Source: Endomicrobiia bacterium (GTDB lineage Bacteria; Elusimicrobiota; Endomicrobiia; DTEH01). From it: 64,000 nucleotides of DNA. The position numbers and the translations under genes were made by a program. The notes below the pieces were generated by a model, which did not search any database, was not told the origin of the DNA, and was given only the letters and a program-made list of their open reading frames with translations. Positions 7,784 through 31,418 of this stretch are shown here, piece after piece (within the stretch, counting starts at the first letter, position 1; each line of letters begins with the position of its first letter). The stretch lies in the NCBI GenBank assembly GCA_039630545.1, contig JBCNUU010000004.1, forward strand, positions 32,001 to 96,000, in the 5' to 3' direction.

Positions 7784-9323
7784 AATCCTCCACTCTTACT
7801 TCCCGTATAACCACTATCTTTATCTGCCCGGGATAATCCACTTCGTCTTCTATTTTTTTCGCAATATCCCTTGCTAAAATACTAACTTGTGAATCATTAA
7901 CTTTGTCCGATTCCACCAGTACTCTGAGTTCTCTTCCAGCGTAAATTGCATATGCATTTTCTACTCCTCTAAACGATTTAGCTATTTGTTCTATCTTTTC
8001 TACCCTCTTTATGTAATGTTCTACAGTATCTTGTCTTGCACCCGGTCTTGAAGCCGAAATAGCATCTGCTACTGATAAAATAAATGCTTCTAAACTTTGT
8101 GGTTCTGTAATCCCTTCATGATGTGATAAAATTGCATTTATCATTTTCTCTGATTCTCCATATTTTTTTGCTATATCAGCAGAAATTTGATGATGTGAAC
8201 CCTCAACTTCATGACTTACTGCTTTTCCTATATCATGTAACAATCCTGCTCTTTTACAAAAATTAACATCAGCTCCTAACTCACCAGCAATAGCTCCTGC
8301 AATTATAGCCACCTCTTTTGTATGCTGAAGCTGATTTTGCCCATAAGAAGTTCTAAATTTTAATTTTCCCAAAAGTTTAAGAATTTCGGGATCTAACCCA
8401 AAAATCCCTAACTCTATCGCCACATCTTCTCCTATTTTTTTAACATATTCTTCAAATTCTAACTTTGTTTTATTAACAATATCTTCAATTCTGGCTGGGT
8501 GAATTCTGCTGTCTTGTATAAGCTTTTCCATAGCAATCTTTGCTATTTCACGTCTTACAGGATCAAAAGAAGAAATTACCAACGTTTCCGGTGTATCATC
8601 TACTATTACATCTACACCTGTAAGTTGCTCAAAAACTCTGATATTTCTTCCTTCCCTTCCTATAATTCTCCCTTTCAACTCATCAGGTACAGAAATTATA
8701 GTAGTAGTATTATCAACAGCCACTTCAGAAGCTACTCTTTGCATAGCAGTAACTAATATTTCTTTGGCTTTCTTTTCTGCATTCTCTTTAAATTCATCTT
8801 CATATTTTTTAAGTTTTAAAGCAAATTCATTTTTAACATCTTCTTCTAAACTTTGAAGCAAAATTTTTTTTGCTTCCTCTTGAGTCAAACCAGAAATTTT
8901 TTCAAGGATTTGTCTTTGTTTTTCTTGTTGTTGTAAAAGATGCTTTTTTTCTTCTTCTAATTTCATATATTCCTGTCTTATTTTATTTTCTTTTTCGTAT
9001 AATTCTTTTGTCCTTTTATCTATAATTTCATATTTTCTATCTATAGTTTCTTCTTTACTTCTTAATTTTCTTTCCCATGCAAGAAGTTCCTGTCTGTGTT
9101 CTCTATTGATGCGCTCTAATTCATTTTTTTCTTTTTCTATAATGTATTTTGCTTCTTGCTTTGCTTTCCTTATTTCTTCATCATAAAACTTTTTTGCTTC
9201 TTCTATTATTTTTTTTGCTTGCATCTCTAAAGAATTAAGATTTTTTTTAGCATAAAGGTATCTTAATAAATAACCTAAAACAACTCCTGAAACTAAAAAT
9301 ATAATTACCATTAGCCAGTTCAT
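7773..9323 (-). CDS. rny: Ribonuclease Y
   Basis: N-terminal TM helix, coiled coil, KH domain ([13 protein letters not shown]), HD domain (LLHDIGK), [12 protein letters not shown]. Confidence 0.97.
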
Positions 9324-9351
9324 TTTAACAAATCTCCTTTCTTAATAAACT

Positions 9352-9924
9352 CTAAACTTTAATAAAATATGTTTCAGAAATTACATAATCAACATAAGTG
9401 TCAAACTTAGATACTGGCAAACAATCCAATATTTGAAAATCGTAACCAACACCACAACTTAAAGTCTTTGTTTTTTTTAATAGCTTATCATAATAACCTC
9501 CTCCGTACCCCAATCTATATCCTTTTTTATCAAAAGCTATACCTGGAACTAATATAAAATCAATGATTTCAAAAATATTTGGAATCTCACTATGTTGAGT
9601 TTCTTTTGGTTCATAGATACCAAATTTATTTTTAACAAATTCTCCATTATATTTTCTTATCAAAAGTTCCTTTTTTTCAAAATCTACTACAGGAAAAAAG
9701 AAATTTTTGCTTCTGTCATCCATCAATTTTAAGATGTTCACTTCTTTTTTAAAAGGGTAATAAATTAAAACATTTTTTGCTAATTTAAATCTCTCTAATT
9801 TAGCAATATTTTCAATAATTATTTGACTTTTTTTTTCTACTTCTTTCTCAGACAAACTTTCTCTTATTTCTAAAATTTTCTTTCTTAAAATTCGTTTTTT
9901 TTCTGTGATTTCATCTGTCGCCAT
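9352..9924 (-). CDS. 5-formyltetrahydrofolate cyclo-ligase
   Basis: FGIYEP, VPGIAFDKKGYRLGYGGGYYD. Confidence 0.93.
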   Translation of the reverse strand: MATDEITEKKRILRKKILEIRESLSEKEVEKKSQIIIENIAKLERFKLAKNVLIYYPFKKEVNILKLMDDRSKNFFFPVVDFEKKELLIRKYNGEFVKNKFGIYEPKETQHSEIPNIFEIIDFILVPGIAFDKKGYRLGYGGGYYDKLLKKTKTLSCGVGYDFQILDCLPVSKFDTYVDYVISETYFIKV

Positions 9925-11201
9925 TTCTCTAACCTTTGTTTTATTTCTTTTTCTTTACCTATATCTTTAGGAAAATAAAACCATTTGTCTATATTTATAT
10001 ATTTTTGTACAACAAAACCTTCTTTATAATCATGAGGATAAAGATAACCTTGACCATGTCCTAAAGATTTTTCATCTCTATGACCATCTTTAAGATGGTC
10101 AGGTACCTCTTCAATTACACCTTTATTTATTTCTTCTTTTACTTTATTTAAAGCCTCATAACTTGCATTTGACTTTTCAGCACAAGCTAAATAACACACA
10201 ACCTGCGCAAGAATTATCTCCATCTCAGGCATTCCTACAAATTCAGCAGCCTGCAAAGCCGATGTGCTTAAAACTAAAGCATACGGATCAGCGTTTCCTA
10301 TATCTTCCGAAGCTAAAATTACAAGTCTTCTTATTATATAGCGAGGATCTTCTCCTGACAACAGCATTTTTTCCATCCAGTAAAGTGCAGCATCTGGATC
10401 TGAACCACGAATAGATTTAATTAAAGCTGAAATATGGTCGTAGTGATAATCCGAGTTTTTATCATATCTAAATGACACAGAAGGAATACATTGTTTTATT
10501 ATATCTAAAGTTATTTTATTTTTATCTAAACCTATTAAATAAGAAGAAACTATATCTATAACATTTAGTGCCTTCCTTGCATCACCATCTGCATACTTTA
10601 TAATGTATTCTATAGCATCTGGTTCTATCATAAATTGATATTTACCCAACCCCTGCTCTTTATCAGAAAGAGCCTTATTTATAATAGTTTTTATATTTTC
10701 AGCAGAAAGTTTTTTAAACTCAGCAACAAATGATCTGGAAATCAAAGCCTGATTAACATAGTAATACGGGTTTTCTGTCGTTAAACCTATAAGTATAATG
10801 TTCCCATGCTCAATTTCTGGTAATAATATATCTTGCTGATATCTATTAAAATGATGGATTTCATCTAAAATTACAACTAATCTTTCATTATATGACTTAT
10901 ATCTATTTATCATTTCTTTCAATTCAGAAATACCTACTAAAGTAGCATTTGTTTCTAACACCTCTGCTTTTGTTTTTTTAGCAATAAGTTTTGCCAATGC
11001 TGTTTTGCCTGTCCCAGATGGTCCAAATAAAATTAAAGAGAAAAGTTTATCTTGTTCTATTAAATTTCTCAAAACGGAATTTTTACTTAAAAGATGCTCT
11101 TGACCTACAAATTCTTCAAAATCTTTGGGTAGAAGTTTGCTAGCTAAAGGTATATTTTTTTGTTTTTCAACATTAAATAGATTCATAAAAATAAAAAACA
11201 T
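9885..11201 (-). CDS. rarA: Replication-associated recombination protein A (start may be ATG at 11186)
   Basis: GQEHL, GPSGTGKT, DEIHHFN, TTENP, SALIKSIRGSDPDAA, SEDIGNADP, YLYPHDY. Confidence 0.95.
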   Translation of the reverse strand: MFFIFMNLFNVEKQKNIPLASKLLPKDFEEFVGQEHLLSKNSVLRNLIEQDKLFSLILFGPSGTGKTALAKLIAKKTKAEVLETNATLVGISELKEMINRYKSYNERLVVILDEIHHFNRYQQDILLPEIEHGNIILIGLTTENPYYYVNQALISRSFVAEFKKLSAENIKTIINKALSDKEQGLGKYQFMIEPDAIEYIIKYADGDARKALNVIDIVSSYLIGLDKNKITLDIIKQCIPSVSFRYDKNSDYHYDHISALIKSIRGSDPDAALYWMEKMLLSGEDPRYIIRRLVILASEDIGNADPYALVLSTSALQAAEFVGMPEMEIILAQVVCYLACAEKSNASYEALNKVKEEINKGVIEEVPDHLKDGHRDEKSLGHGQGYLYPHDYKEGFVVQKYINIDKWFYFPKDIGKEKEIKQRLEKWRQMKSQKKNEF

Positions 11202-11224
11202 AAATTAAATTACAGTTTTTTTAG

Positions 11225-11263
11225 AATATATATAAAGGAGTGAAATTAGGAAAGTTTTATGGT
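11225..11263. repeat. Left arm of the inverted repeat flanking zapA
   Basis: AATATATATAAAGGAGTgAAATTAGGAAAgTTTTATGGT equals the reverse complement of 11577-11613 except for two extra G (lower case). Confidence 0.95.
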
Positions 11264-11269
11264 TAGAGC

Positions 11270-11581
11270 TTAATTAGTATTTTCTTTTAAATATTTATCT
11301 ATCTCTTCTATAAGAGAATTTATTTTAAGTTCTAAATTTATTAATTTCTCTTCAGCTTTTTTTTCTAAACTGAATTTTTCTTTTGCTATTTCTAAAGAAG
11401 TATATGCGTAACTTCTCATCGTATCAATTTGATGTTGTTTTACTTCATTTAACTTTTTGTTAACCTGATCTGCTACAAGTTCAAAAAACATTTTTTCTAC
11501 AGGAGATTTAATGTCTAAAAAAATTTCCTGTGTGCCTATTTTTACTGAAAATTTCTCAATAATTTCTTGTTTATTTACCAT
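11270..11581 (-). CDS. zapA: Cell division protein ZapA
   Basis: 103 aa: N-terminal beta segment (FSVKIGTQ), helix ADQVNKKLNEV, SLEIAKE, C-terminal coiled coil. Synteny with a coiled-coil gene, 5-FTHF cyclo-ligase and rny. Confidence 0.75.
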   Translation of the reverse strand: MVNKQEIIEKFSVKIGTQEIFLDIKSPVEKMFFELVADQVNKKLNEVKQHQIDTMRSYAYTSLEIAKEKFSLEKKAEEKLINLELKINSLIEEIDKYLKENTN

Positions 11582-11613
11582 AAAATTTCCTAATTTACTC
11601 CTTTATATATATT
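11577..11613. repeat. Right arm of the inverted repeat flanking zapA (5' UTR, SD and ATG of zapA)
   Basis: ACCATAAAATTTCCTAATTTACTCCTTTATATATATT, 37 nt, complementary to 11225-11263. Confidence 0.95.
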
Positions 11614-11619
11614 TTTTAA

Positions 11620-11648
11620 AATATATATTATTAAAACCCTAAAGTCAA
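11620..11648 (-). promoter_or_regulatory. Predicted sigma70-type promoter of zapA
   Basis: TTGACT-N17-TATATT on the minus strand; predicted start about 11613. Confidence 0.6.
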
Positions 11649-11665
11649 TATTTATAAAAACATTA

Positions 11666-11935
11666 CTATATTTCAGAAATTTTTTCTATCAATTTTTTAA
11701 TCTTCTGTTTAACAACACCTGTCTTTGACTGAAGATGCAAGTACTCTTTATAGAAACTTTGCAGCTTTTTATTTTCTTCTTTGAGAAGATTTATATCTTG
11801 ATTAAGACGTGTATTTTCTGCTTTAAGAAGTTCAATCTGCTTTACAAATTCTTTTATCTTCTTTTCTAACAATGAAATCTGACTTTCTAAATTTTCTAAT
11901 TTGTTTAACAGACTGCTATGATTTAACTGCTCCAT
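11666..11935 (-). CDS. Small coiled-coil protein, ZapB-like
   Basis: 89 aa of continuous heptads, directly upstream of zapA. Confidence 0.55.
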   Translation of the reverse strand: MEQLNHSSLLNKLENLESQISLLEKKIKEFVKQIELLKAENTRLNQDINLLKEENKKLQSFYKEYLHLQSKTGVVKQKIKKLIEKISEI

Positions 11936-12573
11936 TATTTATTTAAATTATATCCATATTCATCAAATAACAGTGACCTTCTTCTACATTTTGGGCATAA
12001 AATTTCATAAAGATTTTCTCTTTGAGCAAACTGGACAAACTTTTTAGGACTCACATATGAACCCATTTCTTCATTTATAATCTGTATTAAATTTATATTT
12101 CCAAATGCTTTATGACCAAGTTTTTTAACAATGTATAATAGATGCGATTTCGTAGAAATTATACTATTACAAAAAGAACATACTACTAACTGATGTTTTA
12201 TTTCTTGAGATTTAAGAGTTGCTCTATCTGTGGTAGCTAAATCAAACTCTTTTGACATTACAACACCGGGTATCTTTTCATTTCTTGTTGTGCAAATCCT
12301 CGCACATTGTCCACAAAAAACACACTCATCATAATACCAGATCAAAGTTCTTTGAGCAGTTAAAGCTTCTATTTCATCTTTAAGTTTAATTGCACCAGCA
12401 GGGCATACTTCAGCACAAGCACCACAACCAATACATCCATCCTGCGAAGGTTGGGGTTTCCCACGAAAACTTTCAGGAGGAGTATGAGGTTCAAAAGGAT
12501 ATTTTGTAGTAAAAGGTCCCTTTATTAACGCTTTTATTGCTTCTTTTAATTCTCTTAATTTTGGATATTTCAT
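11935..12573 (-). CDS. NuoI/MbhN-like 4Fe-4S subunit of the membrane hydrogenase
   Basis: FTTKYPF, FRGKP, CIGCGACAEVCP, CVFCGQCARIC, extra CxxC pairs near the C terminus. Confidence 0.88.
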   Translation of the reverse strand: MKYPKLRELKEAIKALIKGPFTTKYPFEPHTPPESFRGKPQPSQDGCIGCGACAEVCPAGAIKLKDEIEALTAQRTLIWYYDECVFCGQCARICTTRNEKIPGVVMSKEFDLATTDRATLKSQEIKHQLVVCSFCNSIISTKSHLLYIVKKLGHKAFGNINLIQIINEEMGSYVSPKKFVQFAQRENLYEILCPKCRRRSLLFDEYGYNLNK

Positions 12574-12588
12574 TGGATTAAGTATATC

Positions 12589-12918
12589 CTAATTTTTATT
12601 TTTATATTCATCACATACTGAACTACTACACATCTTTACACCAGATTTATAAGCAGCTTTAGCTAATGCATGTGATGATACTGGAGAAGTCAAAAATACA
12701 AAAAACATTACCAACAAAGCTTTTAAAGCTAAATTTGTGAAAAACCCAGAGTAAACAAATATACCAAAAAATATACCACAAGTCCCCAAAGTTACACATT
12801 TAGTAGAAGCTTGTAATCTAGTATATACATCAGGAAATCTTACTAAACCTATACATCCAATGACGTCGGCTGTTATACCTATAGAGATTATTAAAAATCC
12901 TATTATTTCATTCATCAA
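12589..12918 (-). CDS. MrpG/MnhG (MbhC-like) antiporter subunit
   Basis: GLVRFPDVYTRLQASTK..TLG, LTSPVSSHALAKAAY. Confidence 0.92.
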   Translation of the reverse strand: MMNEIIGFLIISIGITADVIGCIGLVRFPDVYTRLQASTKCVTLGTCGIFFGIFVYSGFFTNLALKALLVMFFVFLTSPVSSHALAKAAYKSGVKMCSSSVCDEYKNKN

Positions 12919-13243
12919 ATCTTTTACCCTCCAAATATTTTGCTAACGCTAAATTTCCAATAAAAGATTGAAGCGCCCAGGCAATTGCTATGTCTATAAA
13001 AAATGAAGCTTTTGTAAAAATAGAAAGAATACCACAGATTCCAACTATAATAAGACCCAATATGTCCGTAGCAACAGCTCTATCTGCAGGAGTTGGACCT
13101 AAAAAGATTCTGTAAAGACACAAAATTAAACTCAAAATCATAGGAGATATAAATTTAAAAACTAAATCCATTTTAATCAATGCATTGATCACAATAAATC
13201 CAATTATGAGTAGTAATCCTAATATATATCTTGTTGTCCTCAT
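12908..13243 (-). CDS. MrpF/MnhF (MbhB-like) antiporter subunit
   Basis: RIFLGPTPADRAVATD, FIGNLALAKYL. Confidence 0.9.
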   Translation of the reverse strand: MRTTRYILGLLLIIGFIVINALIKMDLVFKFISPMILSLILCLYRIFLGPTPADRAVATDILGLIIVGICGILSIFTKASFFIDIAIAWALQSFIGNLALAKYLEGKRFDE

Positions 13244-13249
13244 ATATAT

Positions 13250-13750
13250 TTAAGAAAAAATCTTTTCTAAAATATTCTCAAACTTTTTTACTATCCTTTT
13301 AGTCGCTTCTTCTGAATCCAAACTTCTTACATAAATCCAATGCACATATATATATCCATTTTCTCTATCCACATCAACACTTAAAGTTCCAGGCGTCAAA
13401 GTTATAGAGTTAGCAAGCATTGTCAATCCAGCATCTGATTTAAGCTTTGTTTTAACCTTTACAATACCTGGTTTTATTGGCATATCAGGTAGTATAATTC
13501 TATATGCTACATCGATATTTGCCTTTATTACTTCATATAAAAAAATTATAAAATAATAAATAAACCAAAGATATCTAACCGGTTTTTTGAAACTCCATTC
13601 ATTTTGAAGATTGATATCTCCAAATAATAAAACTATCAAAAAACTACATAGTATACCTACTAATATACTATATATATCAAAACCAGACAAAATAGACCAA
13701 ATTAAGAAAATAAACAAGAATAAAAAAACTCTATTATAGAGGTATTTCAT
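13250..13750 (-). CDS. MrpE/MnhE (MbhA-like) antiporter subunit
   Basis: ANIDVA, PGIVKV, LANSITLTPGTL, YVHW. Confidence 0.93.
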   Translation of the reverse strand: MKYLYNRVFLFLFIFLIWSILSGFDIYSILVGILCSFLIVLLFGDINLQNEWSFKKPVRYLWFIYYFIIFLYEVIKANIDVAYRIILPDMPIKPGIVKVKTKLKSDAGLTMLANSITLTPGTLSVDVDRENGYIYVHWIYVRSLDSEEATKRIVKKFENILEKIFS

Positions 13751-15237
13751 TTTAGAATTGTCTTATAATAAAGCGAACCTTCATATATTGTACTTTTAAT
13801 TTTAGAAAGTAACAAATCATTTATGTTTGGATATAGCAATATACCTAAAATAATACATAAAATAGCAAGTGACAACATAGAAAATTGCATAGGAAAAGGA
13901 ACCTCTTTTTTATTTTCACTGAATTTAGTATTATCCTCAATACTATAAAATCCATATTTCAATACTTTCAGAAAACTTGCTAAAGTTAAAACACTTACCG
14001 CAACCGCAACTATAGCAGCTAAAATATTTTTTGTTTCTATACAAGCAACAATAATTAGCAACTTAGACCAAAAACCATTAAAAGGAGGAACTCCTGCTAT
14101 TGATAAACTCCCAACTACTGCTGAAAATGTAGTATTTGGCATTATTTTATTTACACAACAATATTTTTTAAGGTCCCGTGTATAAAAATTGTATTCTAAA
14201 GCTCCACTAGTTAAAAAAAGTAAAGACTTAAAAATAGAATGATTCAACATATGAAACATTCCTCCTACTATTCCTGTTGGAGATCCTAATCCGATCCCGA
14301 GCAACATATATCCCACCTGACTTATTGAATGATAAGCAAGCAATCTTTTGTAATCCCATTGATATAGGGCTAGAATTACTCCAATTATCATTGACAAAAT
14401 CCCAAGATAAAAAATTATATTCAATATCTCCTGATTTTTAGGAAATACGTTAAAAATGAACCTTACTATTAGATATATACCAAGTGTTTTTATAAGAACT
14501 CCTGACAACATTGCAGAAATTGGAGCAGGAGCAGAAGGATGTGCATCTGGTAACCACCAGTGAAAAGGTACTACTGCAGCTTTTACACTAAAACCTATAA
14601 TGAATAAAAAAAGAATAATTTTGAGTATAAAACTTCTATCAAACTCTATTGTTTTAGCTATATCTGCTAAGTTAAGAGTAGATGTATAACTGTAAGTCAA
14701 AACTATTCCCAGCAAAATCAATCCTGTAGAGATAGAACCTAAAATTATATATTTAAAAGATGCCTCTAATTCGTCTTTACCTATACCATAAGCAACCAAA
14801 GCATAAGAAGAAATTGAAGCTATTTCTAAAAACACAAATATATTGAATAAATCACCACTTATTATTACTCCATTCATACCTGCAATCATAAGCTCAAACA
14901 AAGAATAAAATCCCCAACTTTCAGTATAACTTTTCATATAAGAGATCGAATATATTCCTACAAAAAATCCTACAACATTTACTAACAAAAGCATAAATAC
15001 AGTCAATGAGTCCATTACAAGAGTTATTCCATATGGTATAACCCATCCCCCAACTTGGTACACCAAAGTTATATTTTCTGATGTGTTGATATAAAATAAA
15101 CTTACAAAACTCAAAACAACAAGTAAAAAATTAACTATATTGATAAAGATCTCAGAAAAATTTTTAACAAATCTCCCTAATAGTGAGTTAATAAAAACAC
15201 CTAATAATGGCAAAATTACAAAAAATGTTATTATCAT
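13747..15237 (-). CDS. MrpD/MbhH-like proton-conducting subunit
   Basis: GDLFNIFVFLE, EASFKY, PFHWWLPDAHPSAP, KRLLAYHSISQVGY, PPFNGFWSK. Confidence 0.92.
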   Translation of the reverse strand: MIITFFVILPLLGVFINSLLGRFVKNFSEIFINIVNFLLVVLSFVSLFYINTSENITLVYQVGGWVIPYGITLVMDSLTVFMLLLVNVVGFFVGIYSISYMKSYTESWGFYSLFELMIAGMNGVIISGDLFNIFVFLEIASISSYALVAYGIGKDELEASFKYIILGSISTGLILLGIVLTYSYTSTLNLADIAKTIEFDRSFILKIILFLFIIGFSVKAAVVPFHWWLPDAHPSAPAPISAMLSGVLIKTLGIYLIVRFIFNVFPKNQEILNIIFYLGILSMIIGVILALYQWDYKRLLAYHSISQVGYMLLGIGLGSPTGIVGGMFHMLNHSIFKSLLFLTSGALEYNFYTRDLKKYCCVNKIMPNTTFSAVVGSLSIAGVPPFNGFWSKLLIIVACIETKNILAAIVAVAVSVLTLASFLKVLKYGFYSIEDNTKFSENKKEVPFPMQFSMLSLAILCIILGILLYPNINDLLLSKIKSTIYEGSLYYKTILK

Positions 15238-29709: not shown

Positions 29710-30234
29710 CTAATTAAGTGTTCTTATGTAATTTCTAAGTTTTAGCCTTGCGATTGCTAATTTTATTTTTTGTGATTTATCCTTTAACTTTTTTTTAAGA
29801 ATTGATACTTTTTGACGAAGTAAAGGATGAATTAAATTTTTAGAAATTTCAACTAAAGGGTATAATACAAACTTTCTGTATTGAATTTTTGGATGAGGTA
29901 TAGACAAATTTTTCTTACTAATAATTTTTTTTCCATAAAATAAAATATCAATGTCTATTACTCTTGGTTGATATCTTTTATTATTTGATTTTCTTCCCAT
30001 TCTTTTTTCAATTTCTTTCAATTTTTTTAATAATCCAGTAGGTAATAGATCTGTATTTACTTTTACCACACAGTTATAAAATTCAGGTTGATTAGAATTT
30101 TCTAAAGGAGAAGTAAGATATATAGAAGAAGAATCAATAATTTTACAAAATTTTGACAAATAAAATAAAGCTTTTTTTATATTATTATATTTGTTACCTA
30201 AATTTGTACCAATGGAAAGATAAACTACTACCAT
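29710..30234 (-). CDS. folK: HPPK, 6-hydroxymethyl-7,8-dihydropterin pyrophosphokinase
   Basis: YLSIGTNLG, PRVIDIDIL, IPHP, RKFVLYPL; TAATG overlap with the dapL stop. Confidence 0.93.
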   Translation of the reverse strand: MVVVYLSIGTNLGNKYNNIKKALFYLSKFCKIIDSSSIYLTSPLENSNQPEFYNCVVKVNTDLLPTGLLKKLKEIEKRMGRKSNNKRYQPRVIDIDILFYGKKIISKKNLSIPHPKIQYRKFVLYPLVEISKNLIHPLLRQKVSILKKKLKDKSQKIKLAIARLKLRNYIRTLN

Positions 30235-31418
30235 TAAAGACAATCGCAAGCTTTTTTTATTCTTTCTATAGCTTCTTGAATCCTCTCTTTTGAAACGGTT
30301 AATGCAAATCTAACGTACCCTTCACCACTTTGACCCATACCTATACCTGGAGTAGATACCACACCAACATTTAGAAGTTTGTCAGCAAAAGACATAGAAG
30401 TTTCTCCTTCAGGAACTTTGCACCATATATAAAAAGTAGCTTTGGGCAATTCAACCTCTAAACCAATTTTTCTTAATCCTCCATAAAGCAGATCTCTTCT
30501 TTCTTTGTATATTCTTCTTATATTCTCCACACAATCTTGAGATCCCTCTAATGCAACAACAGCAGCATGTTGTATCGCGTTAAATACTCCAGAATCATAA
30601 TTATCTTTTACTTTTGCTAAACCTGCAATAATATCTTTGTTGCCCACAGCAAAACCCACTCTCCATCCAGTCATATTATAAGTTTTAGAAAGCGAATGAA
30701 ATTCAATTCCTATATCTTTAGCACCTTTCACTGAAAGAAAGCTAATAGGAGGAATTTCGTCAGTTCCCTTATCATCAAAATATATCTCAGAATAGGCACA
30801 GTCATGTGCTACTATAATATTATTCTCTTTTGCAAATTCAACCACTTTTTCAAAAAATTTTTTAGTAGCAACTTGTGTTGTAGGATTATTTGGATAATTA
30901 ATAAACATCAACTTTGTTTTTTTAAGAATTTCCTTTGGTATATCTTCTAAAACAGGCAAAAAACTATTTTCTTTTTTTAAAGACATGTAATAAATCTTAC
31001 CACCAGCTAAAATTACAGATGATTGATAAACCGGATATCCTGGTTCCGGTACTAATACATAGTCATCTTTATCTATAAAAGCCAAAGGAAGATGTGCTAT
31101 ACCTTCCTTTGATCCAATTAAAGAATGAATTTCTGTCTCGTAATCCAATTCAACATCAAACCTTTTTTTGTACCAATTAGCAACTGCTTTACGAAATTTT
31201 TCTAATCCTCTTCCAAAAGGATACTGATGATTTTTAGGATCTTCTACTGCTTTTTTCATTGCTTCAACAATATGATTAGGTGTAGGTATATCTGGATCTC
31301 CCACTCCTAAAGAAATTATATCTACACCTTTTTGTTGTAATTCTTTTTTCTTTCTATCAAGTTCAATAAATAAGTATGGTGGTAGTTTCATTAATTTTTC
31401 ACTATATTTTATTTCCAT
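30234..31418 (-). CDS. dapL: LL-diaminopimelate aminotransferase
   Basis: LPPYLF, LGVGDPD, LIGSKEG, NYPNNPT, EFHSLSKTYNMTGWRVG. Confidence 0.85.
   Translation of the reverse strand: MEIKYSEKLMKLPPYLFIELDRKKKELQQKGVDIISLGVGDPDIPTPNHIVEAMKKAVEDPKNHQYPFGRGLEKFRKAVANWYKKRFDVELDYETEIHSLIGSKEGIAHLPLAFIDKDDYVLVPEPGYPVYQSSVILAGGKIYYMSLKKENSFLPVLEDIPKEILKKTKLMFINYPNNPTTQVATKKFFEKVVEFAKENNIIVAHDCAYSEIYFDDKGTDEIPPISFLSVKGAKDIGIEFHSLSKTYNMTGWRVGFAVGNKDIIAGLAKVKDNYDSGVFNAIQHAAVVALEGSQDCVENIRRIYKERRDLLYGGLRKIGLEVELPKATFYIWCKVPEGETSMSFADKLLNVGVVSTPGIGMGQSGEGYVRFALTVSKERIQEAIERIKKACDCL

Follow-up and report, generated by a model that had tools for sequence, protein, structure and literature searches.

Complementary flanks conserved around zapA in a family of Endomicrobiia suggest a fold-back of the messenger RNA over its own ribosome-binding site

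Only a handful of bacterial mRNAs are known from experimental studies to pair at their two ends, in each case within a single species or genus. In full-length hok mRNA the 5' end pairs with the 3' end and the message is translationally inert, the nascent and processed forms being different in this respect; hok encodes a toxin under the control of an antisense RNA, and trimming at the 3' end activates it. In bacterial ribosomal RNA (rRNA) operons, helices formed by leader and trailer sequences enclose the unit and are cut by RNase III. Three further reports describe pairing within messages. In icaR of Staphylococcus aureus, a motif in the 3' untranslated region (UTR) pairs with the Shine-Dalgarno (SD) sequence of the same mRNA, blocks the initiation complex and makes a substrate for RNase III (PMC3868564), while in hbs of Bacillus subtilis, where RNA species are about 380 nt, a 14-bp contact of the 5' UTR with the 3' UTR modulates RNase Y cleavage (PMC5737220). 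Also in B. subtilis, pyrimidine-rich octamers that resemble an anti-SD and lie hundreds of nucleotides downstream pair with the ribosome-binding site (RBS), inhibit initiation and promote decay, and such octamers are depleted from genes (PMC12697547, a 2025 preprint). Here we describe a gene-enclosing complementarity around the cell-division gene zapA in a 64,000-nt window of an Endomicrobiia genome (assembly GCA_039630545.1, contig JBCNUU010000004.1, positions 32,001 to 96,000; all coordinates below are those of this window). The complementarity is conserved across three genera, and it most likely reflects a fold-back of the zapA RNA over its own RBS.

The 5' arm lies on the minus strand at 11613-11577 (37 nt, AATATATATAAAGGAGTAAATTAGGAAATTTTATGGT), and comprises the predicted 5' UTR with the motifs AAGGAG (11603-11598) and AGGA (11591-11588), the zapA ATG (11581-11579) and 2 nt of codon 2. 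The 3' arm, on the same strand at 11263-11225 (39 nt), begins 6 nt past the zapA stop codon (11272-11270) and would act as an anti-RBS. It is the exact complement of the 5' arm except for two extra bases, C in the sense of the mRNA, and the zapA open reading frame (ORF; 103 aa, 11581-11270, minus strand) would form the loop of the resulting helix. This 37-bp inverted repeat with its two bulged C had been reported in an original prediction made from the sequence alone, and the arms were indeed found to be otherwise identical. The same prediction had placed a TTGACT-N17-TATATT promoter at 11648-11620 on the minus strand; our scan recovered the site with 10 of 12 consensus matches, and its predicted start, at about 11612-11614, coincides with the outer end of the 5' arm. 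AAGGAG, which had been taken as the SD, does lie inside the arm but ends 16 nt before the AUG, too distant for a normal SD; AGGA, at the normal 6-nt spacing and also within the arm, is the better placed of the two. The enclosed ORF is identified as ZapA because 9 of 10 orthologs match the Pfam family ZapA (PF05164, best E 2e-8) and because of zapB-zapA synteny. The window protein itself scores 23.7 bits against a PF05164 cut-off of 23.8, and a profile search of PDB sequences with the ZapA alignment gave no match at E up to 0.01.

When the arms were compared by BLAST with the whole 1.6-Mb genome, they aligned with each other over 39 columns (94.9% identity, E 5e-7); no other alignment was longer than 20 nt, and there was neither a second copy nor a trans partner of either arm. 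Their 28-nt core is single both in the window (0 matches in 100 shuffles) and in the genome. Folding of the minus strand, which the original prediction had proposed as a check, returned the 37-bp closing stem in the minimum free energy (MFE) and centroid structures of a 421-nt RNA of -87.6 kcal/mol (z-score -7.3, with 0 of 100 shuffles as good). ORFs were then scored by the best duplex between a 5' region (-70 to +12) and a 3' region (from the stop to +110), with slightly shorter flanks in the genome scan. The zapA duplex ranked first of 73 ORFs in the window (-47.7 kcal/mol; mean -20.5, standard deviation 6.7) and first of 1,470 in the genome (-45.6; mean -16.2, standard deviation 5.0), where the runners-up were false ORFs in rRNA or in clustered regularly interspaced short palindromic repeats (CRISPR; C18, C35, C37), or interrupted pairings. 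The second-best duplex of the window, that of the ORF at 29710-30249 on the minus strand (-37.3 kcal/mol), was dropped as an interrupted and messy pairing. The repeat is genuine and no assembly artifact. The locus was found in three runs, all of DNA and from two samples of a single study of hot-springs metagenomes, and contigs of all three cover 10800-12000 unbroken, without any gap or joint; one of these runs may be the source of this DNA.

A ZapA homolog is present in all nine other genomes of the family to which the window belongs, seven of the same genus and two of other genera, with identities from 87% down to 42%. The flanks form a duplex at all ten family loci (-30.4 to -47.7 kcal/mol), in no case reached by any of 100 mononucleotide shuffles, and the same is true of six metagenome loci (6/6, each with 0 of 100 shuffles). 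The latter represent four distinct sequences, two of which repeat known genomes and two of which are new lineages, bringing the total to 13 distinct lineages across three genera. The arm sequences vary between genomes yet match within each genome, lineage-specific changes, including insertions, being found in both arms: the two arms in the window share TTAGGAAA, those of genome G003 share TTAAGGAAGG and those of G005 share TTAGGGAAAGGAAA, while in G009 the coding-sequence element ATGGTAGGTAG pairs with its complement. A MAFFT alignment of the full transcripts put the AT-rich UTRs out of register and misaligned the start codons, and therefore alignment-free swap and shuffle tests were used in place of RNAalifold. 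Own-arm pairing averaged -37.6 kcal/mol, against -22.6 kcal/mol when arms were swapped between genomes, and in the swap matrix the own partner came first in nine of the ten rows and in nine of the ten columns; the exceptions involved L007 and L008, which are nearly identical, and a single column, that for L006. Two of the outcomes that the original prediction had named as fatal, a mis-assembly and relatives without the repeat, were thus sought and neither was found (contigs of 3/3 runs; 10/10 genomes), and the matched changes in both arms that it had suggested looking for are present. To judge from these comparisons, the gene-enclosing complementarity is real, being statistically exceptional and phylogenetically conserved. 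The closely related metagenome loci L054 and L055 have the same 3' arm, whereas one base of the 5' arm is deleted in one of them (GGAATAAATT versus GAATAAATT), a natural uncompensated variant.

Across the 13 lineages the core helices are 17-42 bp long and their inner ends abut the ORF. The 5' side of the helix ends between -11 and +10 relative to the AUG, and in 12 of the lineages pairing of the 3' arm sets in at a point from 2 nt ahead of the stop codon's end to 14 nt past it (in L010, 35 nt past it). An SD-like motif is covered in 13/13 and the AUG in 6/13. All 11 distinct sequences from the genus of the window carry a TTGA[CT]N-N17-TA... site, which was found in neither of the two other genera (0/2), and in the same 11 the outer end of the helix lies no more than 6 nt from the predicted transcript start. 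Because of this proximity, pairing in that genus appears to span the whole 5' UTR and to halt at the predicted promoter. One gene among 1,470 in the genome of the window is wrapped in this way, from the predicted transcript start to the nucleotides that follow the stop codon, and the arrangement recurs in three genera with changes matched in the arms, an unusually clean phylogenetic signal.

The predicted effect on the RBS was estimated as the probability of being unpaired over positions -14 to +2, in a nascent transcript ending at the stop codon and in a full transcript that includes the 3' arm. The RBS was predicted to be more open in the nascent form in 13/13 lineages, with mean values of 0.46 (nascent) versus 0.19 (full) at 37 °C, and 0.71 versus 0.29 at 65 °C. 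Predicted occlusion is strong where the helix includes the AUG, as in the window, where the value falls from 0.46 to 0.01. At 70 °C the helix of the window still gives a paired probability of 0.87 for the RBS, and the duplex alone amounts to -15.7 kcal/mol, compared with -43 at 37 °C. The locus was found in hot-springs metagenome runs, and proteome composition suggests a growth optimum near 64 °C by a rough formula. A partial 16S rRNA fragment has 54-56% G+C in a genome of 29% G+C. With the hot growth estimate and a duplex that falls to about -16 kcal/mol at 70 °C, the unusual length of the helix may provide only a moderate working stability, comparable to that of far shorter helices in mesophiles.

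Set beside the described systems, the zapA locus is closest to icaR in what its 3' UTR would do, as a segment of it is complementary to the SD region of its own gene in all 13 lineages. The icaR motif is a short UCCCCUG far from the stop in a long (>100 nt) 3' UTR, whereas the zapA arm would form a helix of 17-42 bp that in 12 of 13 lineages begins no more than 14 nt past the stop, co-varies across a family, and in the genus of the window reaches the predicted 5' end. With hbs it would share a short message, a small abundant protein and long-range pairing of the 5' and 3' UTRs; the hbs interaction is described as acting on RNase Y cleavage in the leader and not by hiding the SD (PMC5737220). 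The anti-SD octamers of B. subtilis are depleted from genes, whereas the zapA anti-RBS arm appears to have been conserved and extended by selection. The hok mRNA, the precedent cited in the original prediction, resembles zapA in form, in that the ends of the zapA message would pair if its transcript stops short of rarA (the zapA helix starts within 6 nt of the predicted start in 11/11 sequences of the genus), but zapA encodes a division protein, its arms have no trans partner in the genome and its helix would directly cover the RBS. The toxin and antisense RNA that define the hok system are absent, and icaR and hbs are closer precedents. Like the rRNA leader and trailer, the flanks of zapA would pair and enclose a whole unit, and a longer precursor is plausible in two of the genera; the rRNA helices, however, enclose rRNA and not an ORF, and no RBS is involved. 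The zapA case thus appears to differ from its precedents in size, in exact enclosure of an ORF from predicted start to stop, in family-wide co-variation and in the class of gene. A literature search for zapA together with UTR, post-transcriptional control and 6S/ssrS found no description of a zapA 5'-3' fold-back.

The reading that we favor, at somewhat better than an even chance, is that the arms form a 5'-3' fold-back of the icaR or hok kind in zapA mRNA and hide its RBS. During transcription the RBS would be free and usable. Once the 3' arm has emerged past the stop codon it would pair with the 5' UTR and the SD, and in roughly half of the lineages with the AUG as well, closing the whole ORF into a loop and stopping further initiation; the long duplex would also be a plausible substrate for RNase III, which is encoded in the genome. 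The amount of ZapA made from each transcript would thereby be capped. In Escherichia coli, overproduction of ZapA leads to filamentation (PMC11584013, citing Galli and Gerdes 2012, which also describes control of zapB by RyhB), and it is to such an excess that the benefit of a cap would be tied; if the reading is true, it extends end-pairing control to a cell-division protein of this kind. Duplex formation in the cell, the block to the 30S subunit, cutting by RNase III and the benefit for ZapA dosage are all steps that we infer. The looping of the ORF and hiding of the RBS put forward in the original prediction have accordingly found good comparative support in the complementarity, present at 10/10 genome and 6/6 metagenome loci, and in the preference for own-arm pairing, while the fold-back itself is still deduced from sequence. 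The natural set of arms also amounts to a collection of ready-made compensatory mutants with which to ask whether a helix closing a whole ORF limits translation to the nascent transcript.

Several observations weigh against this interpretation. The helix stops 7-11 nt short of the AUG in five of the 13 lineages (L004, L006, L007, L008 and L052), and therefore occlusion would be partial in these; their full transcripts are predicted to leave 0.28-0.37 of the RBS window unpaired at 37 °C. The two other genera have their 5' arm in a zapB-zapA gap of 24-33 nt or overlapping the end of zapB, and because the gap is so short and has no promoter-like site, the arm is probably internal to a zapB-zapA transcript rather than at a transcript start. 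An SD-like 4-mer at -18 to -5 precedes just 352 of 1,174 long ORFs genome-wide (about 30%, compared with 103 in a control window), which makes the dependence of this organism on SD pairing uncertain. Comparison of arm identities gave a modest result, the own 3' arm being closer than the 5' arm of any other genome in 7 of 13 lineages, tied in three and less close in three. The paired bases themselves do not identify the sense strand. The core helices of the 13 lineages contain 348 Watson-Crick pairs, 3 G.U, 2 A.C and 3 other 1x1 mismatches, along with 53 unpaired bases in bulges or internal loops, of which the 5' arm contributes 17 and the 3' arm 36. The argument of the original prediction that bulges favor an RNA duplex fails as stated, given 3 G.U against 2 A.C in the cores, and with wider flanks the antisense strand folds better at 8 of 10 loci (21 G.U versus 2 in the sense strand). 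So few G.U pairs beside 53 unpaired bases would be unusual for an RNA helix compensated point by point, and the very low G.U share together with insertions matched in both arms suggests that matching changes may arise by copying between the arms at the DNA level, for example by template switching or conversion, which speaks against the complementarity being maintained in RNA alone. Such a copying step would not remove the need for selection, since the repeat persists across three genera and pairing stops at the predicted transcript start.

Taken further, the last point becomes an alternative in its own right, in which the repeat is a feature of the DNA with no function in RNA, its arms matched by template switching or gene conversion, or serving as protein-binding sites, or in which an antisense transcript is the relevant molecule. 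The almost purely Watson-Crick arms, the insertions shared by both and the more stable antisense fold at 8/10 loci are what this explanation would predict, but a neutral repeat should decay, and this one is kept over three genera while ZapA identity falls to 42%. Differences between the close relatives L007/L008 and L054/L055 are in loops or are one-sided indels, and therefore the arms are not being continuously homogenized; operator sites would be expected to be conserved between genomes rather than to co-vary; pairing ends at the predicted transcript start instead of running into the promoter; and the strongest promoter-like site for antisense transcription is a weak one, matching at 9 of 12 positions and some 190 nt distant. 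We regard this alternative as improbable. Still harder to sustain is an invertible switch that flips zapA relative to an outside promoter, which the original prediction had raised as its own alternative. Inverted repeats do flank a promoter-less gene, and inversion would make the promoter read antisense zapA, but zapB, zapA and rarA are co-directional at 16/16 loci, the arms differ by indels, and contigs of 3/3 runs contain no joints, even if contigs drop rare variants. No serine recombinase was found in the genome, nor any tyrosine recombinase on the contig of the window, the four matches in the genome all being on other contigs. The switch finds no support in these data and is highly improbable.

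A serious contender, although an unlikely one, is that the helix is a stalk for processing or stability: RNase III would excise zapA from a zapB-zapA-rarA transcript, or the paired ends would protect the short mRNA, at high temperature, against RNase Y, RNase J and 3' exonucleases, and coverage of the RBS would be a side effect of very short UTRs. The helix encloses exactly the ORF, genes for both RNase III and RNase Y are present, and hbs provides a 14-bp 5'/3'-UTR interaction that modulates RNase Y cleavage (PMC5737220). The position of the 5' arm within a probable zapB-zapA transcript in two genera fits as well, as does the short distance of 24-39 nt from the arm to rarA, with no terminator predicted from zapA to that gene. 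Against it, the 5' arm always lies over an SD-like motif, and in 6/13 lineages over the AUG as well. With a 5' UTR of about 30 nt, however, there is little else that could pair, and sequence alone cannot separate a stalk from a fold-back; the two readings are compatible. Very doubtful, by comparison, is a self-coupled form of translation in which the helix places the stop codon beside the start codon, and ribosomes that terminate would loosen it from the inside and make the RBS accessible again, keeping active messages open and idle ones locked. The 3' arm does adjoin the stop codon (within 14 nt in 12/13 lineages), and the inner end of the helix is the side of the SD and AUG. Judging by its footprint, a ribosome that has reached a stop codon should open no more than about 7-9 nt of what follows, and for this reason only 1-3 of the 37 pairs in the window helix would be freed, and the SD not at all; the adjacency could also come from the short distances between genes in a genome of 1.6 Mb.

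The fold-back also has to be seen beside the genomic neighborhood of zapA, for which a ZapB-ZapA-SsrS(6S)-YgfA array has been described in beta- and gamma-proteobacteria (PMC7641849). The window contains zapB, zapA and a ygfA-type cyclo-ligase gene, and the position of 6S RNA is held by the anti-RBS arm followed by rarA. In sister families of Endomicrobiia, an enclosing duplex was found at 0 of 19 scored zapA loci (z-scores -1.5 to +1.4; one locus was skipped), and 6S RNA lies directly downstream of zapA at 8 of 11 scanned loci (L030, L031, L033, L034, L036, L040, L042 and L043). Two of these eight matches are above the Rfam gathering score and six are below it (E 1e-5 to 6e-4). A clade-specific 6S model (R1) was built from the eight sequences; of five more sister-family genomes outside the model, it found 6S RNA in four, each time no further than about 40 nt from zapA. 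In the family of the window, Rfam 6S (RF00013) gave no match at 9 loci or in 10 genomes, the genome search being of limited sensitivity, with a match in only 5 of 14 control genomes, and the R1 model found 6S RNA in 0 of 10 genomes, which are 77-98% complete. The ancient zapA-6S linkage thus extends to the Endomicrobiia, and in one family there 6S RNA may have been lost, moved or strongly diverged. The closed zapA RNA was also considered as a derived 6S RNA; this was rejected as unsupported, since neither its sequence nor the 6S models gave a match and a coding loop of 313 nt lacks the rod-like shape of 6S.

These observations allow an extension of the fold-back reading that we offer tentatively and consider rather unlikely, namely that zapA is a self-closing, single-burst message. 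Ribosomes would load only during transcription of the 313-nt ORF or when terminating ribosomes fray the helix, and ZapA output would count transcription events rather than follow the lifetime of the mRNA. The arrangement would have arisen in the same lineage that lost the 6S RNA gene from its ancient place directly after zapA, and may replace the growth-phase coupling of a zapA-6S co-transcript.

Upstream of and co-directional with zapA is a zapB-like gene (11935-11666, minus strand, 89 aa; PF06005, 32.9 bits against a cut-off of 31.5). It is preceded on the same strand (11935-15237 and beyond) by genes for a 212-aa iron-sulfur protein and then for membrane subunits like those of Mrp-type antiporters. 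Downstream, also co-directional, is a gene for an AAA+ ATPase of the rarA/mgsA type (11201-9885, minus strand), with the ygfA-type cyclo-ligase gene after it and the RNase Y gene three genes downstream of zapA. The start of rarA is 24 nt (ATG 11201) or 39 nt (ATG 11186) past the 3' arm, and the second is the likelier since the sequences of relatives open with ATG AAT TT/CT like this ATG. There is no SD-like motif before either candidate start (11184-11224, minus strand). No intrinsic terminator was predicted in 10900-12100; with none between the stop and the 3' arm, and a spacing of 6 nt from one to the other, the zapA transcript should include the arm, and it may read on into rarA. An Rfam scan of 9000-13000 gave no match at E up to 1.

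A second promoter-like sequence, TTGATA-N17-TATACT, lies inside zapA at 11399-11427 (minus strand, 10 of 12 matches), over the conserved codons for VDTM..YAYT. It could drive a transcript carrying a free 3' arm and rarA, and its conservation in relatives is inseparable from protein-coding constraint. The 3' arm was also considered as a mimic of the 3' tail of 16S rRNA and this was rejected, as two 19-nt near-matches prove to be a CRISPR spacer and the assembly holds no 16S 3' end. The spacer is found in arrays of two contigs (C68:436-454 and C10:4150-4168) and matches the 3' arm at 18 of 19 nt; the remainder of the spacer is unmatched, and the likeness is judged to be due to chance.

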